In this document: positions 1 through 61,347 of the stretch, piece after piece
Layout: each line of letters begins with the position of its first letter
Numbering within the stretch: the first letter of the stretch is position 1
Origin: Eledone cirrhosa
Lineage: Eukaryota
DNA: 64,000 nucleotides
Reading direction: 5' to 3'
Assembly: GCA_964016885.1 (NCBI GenBank)
Contig: OZ024752.1
Span: 25,730,001 to 25,794,000, forward strand
Program-made: the position numbers and the translations under genes
The notes under the pieces: generated by a model
Database searches by the model: none
What the model saw: the letters and a program-made list of their open reading frames with translations, nothing else
What the model was told of the DNA's origin: nothing

Positions 1-489
1 TTGCATCATCACGTTATGTAATTGTGAATGGTTTTGAACTGGGTCATGAGTGAAGTCCGTCTAACAAAAACATAGAAGCATTTTCTATATTAAACCTCCG
101 TTGTCGTCACTCTACGTATGTATTGTGTACCTTATTTACTATGGATACCCCTTATTGTACTCGTATAAGTTGCGTTGATAAAGGGTAATTAGACAAGAGC
201 ACTCTACGTCAGGCGTATATATCCACCATTACTATGGCAATCAAAAGCGACGGAGTTTCTATATGAATAATGTTACATAATCGTATTTATTGCATGTGTA
301 TGTATGTATTTATGTATTTATGTATTTATGTACGTATATATATATATATATATATATATATATATATATATATATATATATATATATATATATATATATT
401 TGTGTGTGTATGTTTGTGTGTGTGAATCCCGGGTTCAATCGGGGGTAACCACAGTAAGGTACTCAATACATAGTATATACAGTATTTTA

Positions 490-1020
490 TATATATATAT
501 ATATATAATTGGATACTTAGTAAAATCGAATCTCTGGCGGTGTGCAAGCAAATTCGGCCTACTATGTGAATGAGTTAGCAAAGCACTCGACAAGGTAGGT
601 CCTTAGAGTAATAACATACGTTTAAATAGCTTGACAAATTGAACATTGTGGTAGGTAAAATCTAACACACAATATACCAAAGTAACGAAAAAACTAACAG
701 GTTGAGAAAAATACACCTGGACAAATTAAACGTTATACGTTTAAAGTGTTTCTATGAATCCGAAATCAAATATCAGACTTACGTAACTGGCAAGCTCGTG
801 GTATTCATGATCGACAGAGGATTCAGTTCATCAACAGGTTTTCGTTCTACCAAAGAATGGGGCGAGAAGCTAAATGTTGCCGCTAGGTGCAGCATATCGT
901 CGCGTGTTATTTCCAGCAAGGGAAATAACCCCCGGTTTTTGGCGGGTCATTCAAAATGTTAGACAAAGGAAATATTATAATTTCCGCTAACTATCAGAAT
1001 AAGCTCTCGACCAGATGTTA
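490..1020 (-). mobile_element. Highly degenerate Penelope-like 3' remnant (possible GIY-YIG C-terminus plus pLTR)
   Basis: Minus frame reads HFE*PAKNRGLFPLL...ERKPVDELNPL, reminiscent of PLE endonuclease C-termini. It is followed by the ACTC..GAGTGCT hairpin (581-610) and bounded by microsatellites. Confidence 0.3.
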
Positions 1021-1275
1021 TTAAACAAAAACACACACACACACACACACACACACACACACACACACACACACACACACACACACACACCCACACACAC
1101 ACACTCACACACACACACACACACACACACACACACTCACACACACACACACACACACACACACACACACACACACACATATATTTATATATATATATAT
1201 ATATATACATACATATATATATATATATATATATATATATATATATATATATATATATATATATATATATATATA

Positions 1276-1520
1276 AGAGGTCACAGAATGTGTGACGAAA
1301 GAACTTTGACAATATATAAACAACCATCTGGTTGTGGACCAACCAACCAACCGGAAATTTATAAATTCCTAAATTTATAAATTTATTATAATAAATTGAA
1401 GTGAAAGCAACTGGTGCATGTGTTTCTTATTGGCAACATGACCCTCCCAAAGTATAACAATATCGGTTTCAACACACGTTTTCAGATAAAGAATCTTGGT
1501 AAACAAATTCAGAAACGAAA
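1276..1520 (+). mobile_element. Short (TA)n-bounded element starting inside a hammerhead core; paralog of 44005-44256
   Basis: AAGAGGTCACAGAATGTGTGACGAAAGAACTTTGAC and the downstream ~200 bp match 44071-44256. Confidence 0.7.
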
Positions 1521-1964
1521 TATATATATATATATATATATATATATATATATATAGGAATTGACTGGTTATAACTTTGTATTGGATATCGAATAACGTG
1601 AAAACAAGCGGGTAGCGATCTCTAGACCTACCAGTTCAGAGAAACAATTGTCACCAATGAGATTAAAAACCTTTTTTGTATAGCAAACCGTGTCACTCTT
1701 CTTTCCTGATTTATCATTACTCAAAGTGTTTACAACATAGGAATTACAGCGTACTCGCAACATCACTATGGAAACGCCTTGTTGAGTCAAACTTAGCCAA
1801 GCGTTGATATCATCCACTACCCAGAGTACCATAACTGGACTACACTTAAGTGGACTACCTACAACAATAATCTGTTACCCTGTATACATATATATATATA
1901 TATATATATATATATATATATATATATATATATATATATATATATATATATATATATATATATA

Positions 1965-2370
1965 TCAACTCCGGATGTCGGTGAGCATGTCCAGCCAACC
2001 TCAGTCTCCTCTGTGTCACTTTTGAGCTGACTCTTGGGATGCTCCCATACAGCTCTGAGTTTTTCATCCTCAGTGTATACTGATTAATGTTCAGAGCCAT
2101 CCTCAACATTCTCGTGTAGCACCCATCCACCATCTGAGTGAGTTTCTTGGTCAGTGTCCAAGTCTCAGACCCATTGACATTGCACTCAGTGCTCCTTTGG
2201 GAGCCCCTGCATGGACACACTAGAAGAGGAAGACCAAGGTTAACATATGTTGATGCCCTAAGGACAGACACTGGTCTGTTGGAGATGCAGGATATGGCAG
2301 CGATAATGAGGGACAGAGACCGCTGGAGAGAACTCGTCCATGGATCTCGGGAATTTTACCCGCCTTAGAT
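1965..2370. mobile_element. RTE-type LINE 3' fragment with 5' inversion (twin-primed)
   Basis: Minus 1965-2173 encodes GSETWTLTKKLTQMVDGCYTRMLRMALNI...RLAGHAHRHPEL. Plus 2174-2368 continues LTLHSVLLWEPLHGHTRRGRPRLTYVDALR...stop. Confidence 0.85.
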
Positions 2371-2994
2371 AGATATATATATATATATTGGTAAAAGGAA
2401 AAGAAAATGCTGACAAATTGTTCCCAGTGAAAAATAGTTTAATTAGGAATAAGTAAAAATATATATATATATATAGAGAGAGAGAGAGATAGAGAGAGAC
2501 CGAGAGAGAGAGAGTGTGAGAGTGAGCGAGAGAGAGAGGGAGGGGGCGGGAGGGAGAGAGAGAATAAGGAAAATGCGAAGTTCGGTGTAGATATTAAAGT
2601 ATCCTTTAATATCAATGCTGTGATATATATTTCAATAACTATCGTGGCTACGTGATTGTTCAAATAGGTAACCGGTCACGCGATATCACCAGACAGCATC
2701 TTTATGTAATAATGTTACGTTAAGACTATCAACATTTCGCACACAAGGCATTTGTCAACCCTTAAACCCAAACATATGTATGAATATATATGCATATGTA
2801 TGTATGTATGTATGTATGTATGTATGTATGTATGTATGTATGTATGTATGTATGTATGTATGTATACACACATACATATATATATATACACACATACATA
2901 CATATATATATATATACATATATATATATATATACACACGTACATACATACATACATACATATATATATATATATATATATACACATACATATA

Positions 2995-57661: not shown

Positions 57662-58413
57662 TATACATACATATATACATATATATATATATATATATAT
57701 ATTTATATACATATATATATATATACATACATATATACATATATATATATATATATATACATACATACATATATACATATATATATATACACATACATAT
57801 ATATATATATATACATACATACATACATATATATACATACATACATACATATATATACATATATATATACATACATATACATACACATATATATATACAT
57901 ACATATACATACACATATATATATACATACATATACATACACATATATATATACATACATATATACATATATATATATATATACATACATATATACATAT
58001 ATATATATATATATACATACATATATACATACATATATATATATACATATATATATACATATATATATATACATATATATATACATATATATATATACAT
58101 ATATATATATATACATATATATATATATACATATATATATACATATATATATACATATATATATACATATATATATACATATATACATACATATATATAT
58201 ACATATATATATATATATACATACATATATATATATATATATATACATATATACATACATATATATATACATATATATATATATATACATACATATATAT
58301 ATATATATATATATACATACATATATATATATATATATATATACATATATATATATATATATATATATATACATATATACATACATATATAAATATATAT
58401 ATATATATATATA

Positions 58414-59008
58414 TGGTGACTGCCAACTCGTTTTCGAGTACGGCCACTACTTTATACCCATGGAGGAGAACCCTTACCGATGCGCTGAACGAGTGTGACT
58501 TTTTAGACCAGCCAGCGACTTGAAAACTCTGGTACAAACACAACACTTGTGATAATTACTGACACATAGTGCTGGGCCCATGGTACCATGTAACGACAAG
58601 TGCAGAGAGATCTCCAGATATAAAGCAATGCCTGTGCCGTGAGGCTTTTATAGTGTGCAAAGGCACTGCACAAAGCCAGTCCCACTCTCTTAACCAAGTT
58701 GATATTTACCAAAAAGAAGAACAAGTCAACATCATTGGATACCATCAGGCTTGCAGGTGTTATATCAGAGTTTTCCTTCTCCTAGAATTCTGCCTTGACA
58801 AAGGCTAAGGGGTCATCTATCCCGGTGATTTTGGATGGCCATTGACTCTTAAGAGCTCCTTTGCCCTTTGACAGGTTTTGTTTTTAGACCTGCAGGATGT
58901 CCAAAGTCACCCTCCTCACCAAGAAACCTTGGTGGGGTTGCCAGTTTAGTCGCCAACGACCCGACCATGGGACAGGTTGTACTGGAATGCATGTTACCAG
59001 TAGCACCA
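58414..59008 (-). mobile_element. Family A copy, slightly 5'-truncated
   Basis: Matches 39544-40137. Confidence 0.9.
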
Positions 59009-60151
59009 GTAGCCATATATATATATATACATATATATATATATATACATACAAATCTCTATATATATACATACATACATATATAAATACATACATATAT
59101 ACATACATATATATATATACATATATACATATATATATATACATATATACACATATATATACATATATACACATATATATATATATATATATACACATAT
59201 ATATACATATATATATACACATATATATACACATATATATACACATATATATACATATATATATACACATATATATACATATATATATACACATATATAT
59301 ACATATATATATACACATATATATACATATATATATACACATATATATACATATATATATACACATATATATACATATATATATACACATATATATACAT
59401 ATATATATACACATATATATACACATATATATATACATATATATATACATATATATATATATACATATATATATATACATATATACATATATATACATAT
59501 ATATATATATATATATATATATACATATATATATATATATATACATATACATATATATATACATATATATATATATATATACATATATATATATATATAT
59601 ATATATATATACATATATATATATATATACATATATATATATATATATACATATATACATATATATATATATATACATATATATATATATATATACATAT
59701 ATATATACATATATATATATATATATATATACATATATATATATATATACATATATACATATATATATATATATACATATATATATATATATACATATAT
59801 ATATATATATACATATATATATATATATACATATATATATACATATATATATATATATATATATACATATATATATATATATATATATATACATATATAC
59901 ATATATATATATATATATATATATATATACATATATATATATATATATATACATATATATATATATATATATACACATATATATATATATATATATATAT
60001 ACATATATATATATATATATACATATATATATATATATATATACACATATATATATATATATATATATATATATACATATATATATATATATATATATAT
60101 ATATATATATATATATATATATATATATATATATATATATATATATATATA

Positions 60152-60880
60152 TAATAAAATATAGAGAAAAATACTGCAGGTAGCACATGGATAACATGTA
60201 ATAAAATGAGTCCCTCATCAGTGATTTGCCGACGATCATAGATATTTCATTGCATTAAAAATCATATACCTCACGTCGGTGCAATAATAACCAAAATAAG
60301 TTATTAGGACAATTGAAACGCGTAAAGCGAGTGAGACAGGAGAACAACAAAGAGTATAGCTAACCGTAGGGGAAAGAAACAAGCTTCAAAATTATTCTGT
60401 TTAGCATAAGCTAGGTGAATATATGAGCGCTTTAGAAAAAAGACCTGACACGAACGATGGCCATGTGAGAAGAGAGAAAAATAGCCTTCGAGGTGTACAG
60501 GATGAAATGAAGAGAGGATAAACAGTGAGTGAGTGAAAGTGTGAGGAAGAGTTAACTGACATGACAGAGGGGGCGAAAGAGGGTAGGAGAAACAGAGAGA
60601 ATGGGGGAGCAGTAAGAGAGAGAGAGAAAAAAACACAGAATCGCAGTTTGGGTAAATATATGTAATAAAATATAGAGAAAAATACTGCAGGTAGCACATG
60701 GATAACATGTAATAAAATGAGGCCCTCATCAGTGATTTGCCGACGATCATAGATATTTCATTGCATTAAAAATCATATACCTCACGTCGGTGCAATAATA
60801 ACCAAAATAAGTTATTAGGACAATTGAAACGCGTAAAGCGAGTGAGACAGGAGAACAACAAAGAGTATAGCTAACCGTAG
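60152..60880. mobile_element. Partial-tandem element (511-bp period) bounded by (TA)n
   Basis: 60152-60369 = 60663-60880 with one mismatch seen. Confidence 0.8.
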
Positions 60881-60914
60881 ATATATATATAGATATATAC
60901 ATATATATATACTT

Positions 60915-61347
60915 ATATAATATAAGATCAAAAGATGGTTAAAAGAGTTCCATGTATTTTATTATGCGCATTTCAAAAACAAATATCATCCTGAGATGAC
61001 ATTTGCGTTTTCGTCAGATAAAATAGGGAGACACGATATGAAGGTTAAAAAACACTTGTGAATAGTGCACTTTTAAATCAACATATGAAAAGTAATTTAA
61101 GATTGATGCGTGATATTGGGATATTGTTTTTTAACCTTCATATCGTGTCTCCCTATTTTATCTGACGAAAACGCAAATGTCATCTCAGGATGATATTTGT
61201 TTTTGAAATGCGCATAATAAAGTACATGGAACTCTTTTAACCATCTTTTGATGTTATATTATTTATACTCCAGTCCCACAAACTGTAGAGTGCTACTTAT
61301 CCGATATCTGCATTGCTTTATTGTACTTACAATAAAACTCACCTCCT
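60915..61347. mobile_element. Fold-back element with hammerheads on both strands (60957-61023 minus, 61157-61221 plus)
   Basis: tttat CTGACGA aaacgcaaatgtcatc-tcag-gatgatatttgttttt GAAA tgcgca TA ataaa. Confidence 0.85.

Follow-up and report, generated by a model that had tools for sequence, protein, structure and literature searches.

The subject of this report is a small, duplicated hairpin that recurs in a 64-kb window of the Eledone cirrhosa genome (contig OZ024752.1, positions 25,730,001 to 25,794,000; 'the window' always means this whole stretch), which forms part of a 3.0-Gb genome in 1,796 contigs. (TA)n repeats are abundant in the window, and its hairpins lie in copies of Penelope-like elements (PLEs), apparently of the Hydra clade, some of which are inverted units of pseudo-long terminal repeat (pLTR) arms. 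In these elements, both copies of the hairpin lie between a hammerhead ribozyme motif and the start of the open reading frame (ORF), and element copies end slightly 5′ of either the first or the second hairpin. We consider it probable, judging from sequence, that the hairpin on the element RNA is a putative binding site for reverse transcriptase (RT), from which target-primed synthesis would start a few bases upstream.

A first-pass annotation of this DNA had listed an ACTC…GAGTRC hairpin at 12 sites. All 12 are present, at or a few bases from the positions then given; the copy at 33904-33930(-) has ATTC in place of ACTC, and the first inner pair is imperfect at 9624 and 37468(-). Enrichment over background, also expected there, is pronounced: ACTCN{6,36}GAGTRC occurs 23 times in the window against 2.77 ± 1.93 expected (0 of 100 shuffles reach 23), and in the 3.0-Gb genome, where counts possibly include overlapping matches, TACTCYN{5,18}RTHGAGTRC gives 78,402 matches versus 997 for the reversed control, and GCTCYN{5,18}RTHGAGCRCT gives 20,549 versus 82. 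Flipping the first inner pair to R..Y leaves only 1,562 versus 802 genome-wide, and most of the 100 flipped matches listed belong to one family (Q), which has G-C at that pair. Seven of the 23 window matches were set aside as a different repeat, a bulge-less ACTCGTTTTCGAGTAC hairpin that closes a 460-600-bp repeat, and four more (1787-, 21936, 27369, 63803-) misfit the refined fold.

The motif, as derived from 112 calls in 81 sequences, has the shape RCUC-[P2]-UH-GAGY-RC(U), in which the RCUC and GAGY arms would form an outer stem, P1, and some ten nucleotides are nearly invariant across phyla. The inner stem, P2, starts directly after ACTC and closes before the 2-nt UH bulge; it is usually 3-7 bp long, within an inner part of 5-90 nt. 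That the inner part pairs in spite of its variable sequence, as the first-pass annotation had it, is borne out by counts in which pairing was not a criterion for calling motifs: the first P2 pair is formed in 65/65 distinct motifs (43 C-G, 21 U-A, 1 U-G; shuffle mean 51.1), and the second and third in 47/65 and 45/65 (shuffle means 29.0 and 26.6), with 0/5000 shuffles as high at any of the three; at the fourth pair, pairing in the same motifs is not significant against shuffles. Since a MAFFT alignment of 57 motifs misplaced the 5′ arms, we used these anchored counts together with an alignment of 16 sequences of equal length, picked for having P2, in which 99.1% of cells pair and four pairs change on both sides. 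The outer P1 pair also varies, being G-C, A-U or U-A. G-U outnumbers A-C by 8 to 1, which favours folding of the sense strand.

It is extremely improbable that the motif reflects chance, descent within one family, or a conserved coding motif (Y-S..V/I-E-C/Y). TAC TCY … RTH GAG TRC can indeed be read as codons, and many of the counts stem from a few abundant families; against this, the spacing is no multiple of three and the motif lies upstream of the ATG, a frame and a position that rule out the coding reading, while covariation extends over 26 sequence clusters. Nor do the instances trace to one alignable family, an outcome that the first-pass annotation had named as fatal to its proposal: in pairwise local alignments, the ORFs of carrier families A-E are 28-49% identical.

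In 6/6 carrier families that could be traced into an ORF, that ORF is of Hydra type. Full-length copies of family A, in 3.9-kb tandems, have the order hammerhead, motif and then an 800-aa ORF with RT and GIY-YIG-type motifs; searches past the tails of families B, C, D, E and a sixth, abundant family reached a related ORF each time. The change from DKG to DKT is found in A, B, C and D and in 58/76 metagenomic ORF pieces (the E fragment is too short), and the CxCX5C linker before the C-terminal GIY-YIG domain in A, B and 58/76 metagenomic pieces, though not in a Neptune-type ORF. By eye, the intact 800-aa family A protein has no CCHH in its endonuclease and has CxxC and CxH near its C-terminus, and the carrier ORFs resemble those of Hydra-1_Obim and Hydra-1_Ajap. 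The carrier elements are inserted in (TA)n. The Hydra clade, according to the available text of Craig et al. (2021; PMC8557442), is characterized by DKT, RWK, a CxCX5C linker, no CCHH, C-terminal CxxC and CxH, (TA)n targets and, mostly, hammerheads. Because they match this clade in DKT, CxCX5C, the lack of CCHH and (TA)n targets, the carriers are best classified as probable Hydra-clade PLEs. All five of A-E have the RW of the N-terminal motif, which reads RWT in A and RWR in B-E versus the diagnostic RWK. The unit of family A, at 3.9 kb, is longer than the <3 kb described for Hydra elements (PMC8557442).

In a search that allowed an imperfect stem II, a hammerhead core with stem I was found in A, B, C and E, and a core in G and H; Rfam returned no match for the carriers' hammerheads in the window. 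The sixth family (L218, L220, L356-L365), which is very abundant, has a variant hammerhead-like core, CUGAGGA, with a short stem and no clear GAAA. A 183-bp tandem array of a sixth-family pLTR piece occurs at G000:C2:169702714-169703476. Family D, although autonomous, has no CUGAnGA core within 150 nt upstream of hairpin 1 in the loci examined; in its place (10126-10298) the sequence is GC-rich and includes GAAA and a palindromic hexamer, perhaps a variant ribozyme. The distance of 45-95 nt from the hammerhead cut given in the first-pass annotation suits the GAGTRC end better than the ACTC start, which lies at 33-63 nt in the window; in metagenomic loci, ACTC starts 33-56 nt past the predicted cut in 34/56 hammerheads. 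Its suggestion that the motif is common to the whole class of hammerhead-bearing elements did not hold. The motif is missing downstream of Neptune-type hammerheads (0/26 and 0/18 copies) and of those of three further families not assigned to a clade (0/21, 0/10 and 0/10 copies), and is therefore not general to such elements. A Neptune-type element with ORF pieces at 30315-31114(-) was rejected as the motif's partner, its full-length copies being without the motif.

A key observation to emerge from the full-length copies is that the hairpin is duplicated. A second hairpin, which the first-pass annotation had missed, follows hairpin 1 by 90 (A), 93 (B), 71 (C), 78 (D), 79 (E) or 67 nt (sixth family); all that family C retains of it is a simple GCAC/GUGC stem. 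Hairpin 2 is visible only in copies that run into the ORF or the next unit. PLE insertion units can have an optional 'tail' at only one end, and we found two such end classes in A-E, H and the sixth family, differing by ~65-105 nt (30-40 bp is described for PLE tails in the texts available to us). We mapped ends in 211 loci (1.01 Mb), a non-random set picked by motif, tail or protein searches. Of the mapped ends, 119 run into a purine-pyrimidine microsatellite, and 116 of these are found ≤14 nt 5′ of one of the two hairpins (A 35/35, B 30/31, C 27/28, D 14/15, E 6/6 and 4/4), the most frequent position in each family being between -2 and -7; 27 further copies of A-E continue through into the ORF. 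Searches beyond the tails of B, D, E and the sixth family met the second hairpin 2-9 nt past the long end, and then the Hydra-type ORF. In the inverted units of the window, hairpin 1 is present in the long arm, and the short arm ends before reaching it. Bearing in mind that copies end just 5′ of one hairpin or the other, we conclude that the tail corresponds to the spacing from the first hairpin to the second.

These data show a positional bias relative to element 3′ ends, for which the first-pass annotation had proposed a test, and they recast two of its claims. The (TA)n junction that it placed shortly after the motif does lie 40-75 nt after GAGTRC, but this is the site just before the overlooked hairpin 2. 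A cis-acting 3′-end or RT signal is likewise favoured by the end mapping, by conservation across phyla and by retention in non-coding units (see below), with the difference that the relevant ends lie 5′ of a hairpin, not after it. The sequence 5′ of the hairpins is often TA-rich; however, only 3 of 11 TA-like runs in family B adjoin a hairpin, and family D has none of ≥4 nt, so TA microhomology alone does not set the ends.

Hairpins are retained, rather than the hammerhead, in non-coding units of ~600 bp that are arranged head-to-tail in tandem. Family F (L312), to which the copy at 583-609(-) belongs, has a tandem unit of ~608 bp that contains neither a hammerhead core nor a long ORF match, in agreement with the earlier statement that the motif also occurs in fragments without a ribozyme. 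Both hairpins are present in the unit, the second one having a UCUC/GAGA stem and an inner part of 77 nt, and 25/32 matches, from a query biased to such copies, end in a microsatellite directly before hairpin 2. The same hairpin pair occurs in units of 581 (N581; L250/L251), 594 (N594; L253) and 603 bp (N603; L252). Only N594 and another unit, Q (L246, 629 bp × 5), gave readable listings of ends, those of N581 and N603 being swamped by TA matches; for Q, 9/9 ends found are at its hairpin. No CUGAnGA-GAAA core was found in F, N581, N594 or N603, and Q has a core-like stretch of doubtful fold. The L250 array starts exactly at hairpin 1. These hammerhead-less or hammerhead-degenerate units are possibly an undescribed class of non-autonomous Hydra passengers. 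They resemble non-LTR retrozymes, described as short non-coding tandem units dependent on PLE proteins (PMC7229834; bioRxiv 10.64898/2026.07.22.740005, as far as the accessible parts go), and F, N581, N594 and N603 differ from them in keeping the hairpin pair and in having no CUGAnGA-GAAA core.

We also looked for the motif beyond this genome. At E ≤ 1e-30, 330 proteins matched in a profile search, and an alignment of 12 of these was used to retrieve metagenomic loci; the best 80 of at least 361 confirmed relatives yielded 77 loci, forming 37 clusters at 60% identity. The motif is present in 51/77 of these Hydra-type loci and 26/37 clusters, with a marked strand bias (66 forward versus 3 reverse versus 3 inside ORFs). 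Where ≥200 nt of upstream sequence was available (43 loci), 24 have two copies, 10 have one and 9 have none. Among 19 metagenomic pLTR ends with a motif-bearing reference, 12 fall within -4..+10 of a hairpin versus 1.5 expected. A scan of viral contigs returned no relatives. Published consensus sequences, inspected by eye, also carry the motif: it occurs in Hydra-2_Amil (coral) and Hydra-2_Ajap (sea cucumber), and twice at the start of Hydra-1_Ajap (sea cucumber), so that 3/6 of the new Hydra consensus sequences in the available material of PMC8557442 clearly show the hairpin. As a separate observation, stem III of three Hydra hammerheads published there is ACUC-N-GAGU, the same pairing as P1 of the motif in the Eledone genome.

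In metagenomic loci the hairpins sit at fairly constant distances upstream of the protein match, at about -175 to -200 and -110 to -140. Such spacing would be expected if 5′-untranslated-region (UTR) hairpins governed how the ORF is transcribed, spliced or translated, for instance by acting as an autoregulatory operator, and if the ends were set by TA-rich microhomology, which is frequent 5′ of the hairpins. We consider this very unlikely as the whole explanation: most TA-like runs of the pLTR are unused as ends, and the non-coding units keep both hairpins, with ends mapping there. An additional role of the hairpins in translation may nevertheless exist.

We hypothesize instead that RT engages the hairpin, in a process of five steps. 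Transcripts of tandem or pLTR units would carry, in order, the hammerhead, hairpin 1, hairpin 2 and the ORF. The RT-GIY-YIG protein would then bind to a hairpin, its contacts being the invariant CUC/GAG pairs, the UH bulge and the unpaired RC(U). The endonuclease would nick (TA)n DNA, and the free 3′ end would act as a primer on AU-rich sequence located 2-9 nt upstream of that hairpin, probably aided by 1-5 nt of UA microhomology. A start at hairpin 1 would generate the short end, and one at hairpin 2 the long end, whose tail contains hairpin 1. Finally, the non-coding ~600-bp units that keep the hairpins could be mobilised in trans, the hammerhead being unneeded. There is a precedent for internal initiation: the RT of the anole Poseidon PLE (PAc) starts in vitro at two sites in a stem-loop region, the sequence between them is the tail, and hammerhead cleavage is unneeded for insertion (Frangieh et al. 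2024, PMC11167929). The carriers resemble PAc in having two internal 3′ termini past the hammerhead, a tail between them, a stem-loop in the start region and AT-rich targets. The PAc starts, however, lie 111-118 nt inside the ORF, at one AC-rich stem-loop for which the accessible text gives no cross-family consensus (PMC11167929), whereas each end of the Hydra carriers has its own conserved, bulged 5′-UTR hairpin and lies 5′ of the stem.

The hairpin has no counterpart in Rfam: release 15 gave no match at gathering score in the window, where the 150 best weak matches shown are repeat-driven and of microRNA type, and 20 carrier loci gave a single irrelevant match (E 0.46). HDV-like ribozymes cut 5′ of their fold, and it could be supposed that our motif, whose ends also lie 5′ of the fold, makes RNA 3′ ends (as a minimal or protein-assisted ribozyme, or as a nuclease site cut just 5′ of itself) from which RT starts as in R2. 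Its ten or so near-invariant nucleotides across phyla and its persistence in hammerhead-less units would be in keeping with such a function. We nonetheless judge RNA cutting to be improbable, given that the motif matches nothing in Rfam, is very small and is marginally stable, that the distance from end to stem ranges over 2-9 nt among families and sites, where a scissile bond would have a fixed position, that long-end copies require an uncut hairpin 1, and that the anole RT works on uncut RNA (PMC11167929).

Several points weigh against RT recognition of the hairpin. The predicted folds are weak (z -0.07 to -1.75), and the proposed P1 + P2 fold is the minimum-energy structure in only 7/12 tests (P1 alone 2, a shifted register 1, a different fold 2); this thermodynamic profile would be more typical of a signal stabilised by protein than of a fold that stands by itself. 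The three inner P1 pairs are invariant in the 16-sequence alignment, so that covariation gives no pairing support there, and the shuffle tests take no account of relatedness among sequences. In the end mapping, besides the selection of loci described above, we left out 88 alignment ends that lacked a microsatellite, many of which cluster, as judged without case-by-case inspection, at apparent subfamily differences, and TA matches leave the exact junction uncertain by 1-5 nt. Among metagenomic loci, the 9/43 5′ regions without a motif call (some show variants or rearranged flanks by eye) and the 7/19 ends away from any hairpin do not fit, and by eye the motif is degenerate in Hydra-1_Crog and absent from the portions of Hydra-1_Obim and Hydra-1_Amil examined (PMC8557442). 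The anole precedent comes from a different clade, starts inside the ORF and reportedly shows no homology to the target (PMC11167929). The proposed binding and priming steps are deduced from sequence.

Recognition at the DNA level, moreover, predicts an identical end map. The GIY-YIG endonuclease might read the hairpin as single-stranded or cruciform DNA and cut just 5′ of it, at resolution of the insertion intermediate or when the element targets its own pLTR. Tails are credited to endonuclease-mediated resolution in PMC8557442, PMC11167929 cites D. virilis work in which the tail is required for endonuclease recognition, and the excess of G-T over A-C is also compatible with sense-strand DNA. 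We regard this as unlikely, though less so than the other alternatives: an inner part of 5-90 nt with compensatory pairs excludes ordinary double-stranded recognition, first-strand cDNA would be antisense, and the bounds of the anole element's tail are RT start sites (PMC11167929). Returning to RT recognition, a stronger form of it would hold that a portable ~25-nt RNA module alone directs target-primed RT to start a few bases upstream anywhere in a transcript, that its tandem duplication causes the clade's tail, and that it defines an undescribed hammerhead-less ~600-bp non-autonomous class carrying only this signal; on this we find the balance even.

Small RNA structures position other RTs. 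R2 RT starts at the RNA 3′ end and is recruited by the R2 3′ UTR; the hepadnavirus epsilon bulged stem-loop templates protein priming from its bulge; and telomerase RNA has template-flanking stems and one short template that is copied repeatedly. Like these, the Hydra hairpin would hold RT in place so that the first templated base lies at a set distance; it differs in that the start is internal, the priming presumably by DNA and the signal duplicated. What appears new here is a signal shared across the clade, duplicated and covarying, from which both ends of a PLE insertion can be predicted, the internal RT start itself having its precedent in PAc. In its accessible text on Hydra elements, PMC8557442 mentions neither hairpin nor duplication and explains tails by endonuclease resolution. 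The hairpin is not described in the literature that we searched, which included the available parts of PMC4209133, PMC7229834, PMC3846280, PMC5737381, PMC13282606 and the 2026 retrozyme preprint; Repbase Reports, subscription journals and figure images lay outside its scope.

The features of the window are collected in Table 1. The relative, in L078, of the variant with a long inner part stops directly before the variant hairpin. Families H and I were searched, and no link to an ORF was obtained.

Table 1. Hairpins, inverted units and associated features in the window (positions count from the first nucleotide of the 64-kb stretch).
Feature	Position	Strand	Remarks
Hairpin 1, family A (Hydra-type PLE)	61267..61293	+	Full-length relatives L069, L249
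Hammerhead motif, family A	61162..61216	+	Cleavage predicted after 61216; hairpin 1 follows at 50 nt
Inverted pLTR unit, family A	60908..61351		Minus arm is the short end, ~5 nt before hairpin-1 position; plus arm includes hairpin 1 and is the long end ('tail'), ~6 nt before hairpin-2 position
Second inverted unit, family A	33849..34377		Hairpin 1, 3′ part at 33904-33930(-), split by insert
Insert inside family A hairpin 1	~33940-34121	-	~15-bp duplication
Hairpin 1, family B	42307..42328	+	Hydra-type ORF in L259, L268
Inverted unit, family B	41979..42389		Hammerhead 42035-42083(-); minus arm short end, plus arm tail
Hairpin 1, family B	10385..10406	-	Head to head with short-end arm 10434-10512(+)
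Hairpin 1, family C	14462..14482	+	Hydra-type ORF in L111
Inverted unit, family C	14326..14518		Hammerheads 14390-14428(+), 14343-14381(-); short arm without hairpin 1, ending 5′ of its position; long arm ending 5′ of hairpin 2
Degenerate hairpin 1 (ATTC), family C	31572..31599	+	
Hairpin 1, family D	10126..10151	-	Hydra-type ORF in L243, L256
Hairpin 1, family D	27828..27853	-	
Degenerate hairpin 1, family D	15580..15614	-	Weak covariance-model match, E 0.92
Hairpin 1, 3′ half, family E	36386..36393	+	Head to head with hammerhead arm 36256-36336(-); Hydra-type ORF in L279
Hairpin 1, family F	583..609	-	Hammerhead-less ~608-bp non-coding tandem unit; copy stops at ~507, directly before hairpin-2 position
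Hairpin 1, family G	20831..20868	+	63 nt after hammerhead 20704-20767
Hairpin 1, family H	22878..22919	+	Relatives have intact hammerhead core, short ends at -2/-3
Hairpin 1, family I	199..256	-	46-nt inner part; old, divergent relatives
Degenerate hairpin, family J	9624..9649	+	
Degenerate hairpin, family J	37445..37468	-	
Hairpin, family K	10600..10635	-	Additional to the sites of the first-pass annotation
Hairpin variant, long inner part	62389..62454	-	6-bp P2, UG bulge, A.C outer pair; after hammerhead 62510-62575(-)
410-600-bp repeat copies	3791-4252, 4464-5461, 7704-8309, 39545-40150, 43346-43950, 58415-58995		

Other elements share the window. The insert that splits hairpin 1 of the second family A unit is, by its sequence, what we take to be a tRNA-type element resembling short interspersed nuclear elements, and related sequence comes after both family J motifs. 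For a short-end copy at 8594(-), a longer relative (L026:8534-8638) has a hairpin with GAGC-UA, not GAGC-RC, 2 nt past the short end. Hammerhead families without the motif occur at 44719(+), 42551(+), 17869(-) and 41910(-), at 57508(+)/57424(-) and at 41116(+). A young Neptune-type PLE (29700-31385(-); L011, L012) has an Asn-rich insert and a 1,216-aa frame; by eye, it also shows two 3′ ends, ~27 and ~72 nt into the ORF, and a small AC-loop hairpin after the first recalls PAc. Seven copies of a 410-600-bp repeat that ends in a GC-rich hairpin lie beside (TATG)n, and a fragment at 38550-39185 has weak VRR-NUC and zf-RVT matches; the repeat is probably the 3′ end of a long interspersed nuclear element (LINE) with a restriction-like endonuclease. 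Another LINE, at 51544-54797(-), has endonuclease, RT and C2H2 zinc-finger Pfam matches and is broken into several frames.

Penelope-like elements are the sister group of telomerase. On how they choose a template and a start site, one in vitro study has shown internal initiation and names no conserved signal. The motif offers a covarying consensus, two natural copies per element and many intact partner ORFs of ~800 aa in one genome, so that the origin of the tail and RT-RNA recognition become testable with few mutations. Were the module portable, it would be a compact means of bringing RT to any desired position on an RNA. For the biology of the clade, the motif, whose patterns match ~100,000 times in this genome, can serve to mark Hydra elements together with the non-autonomous passengers that depend on them.

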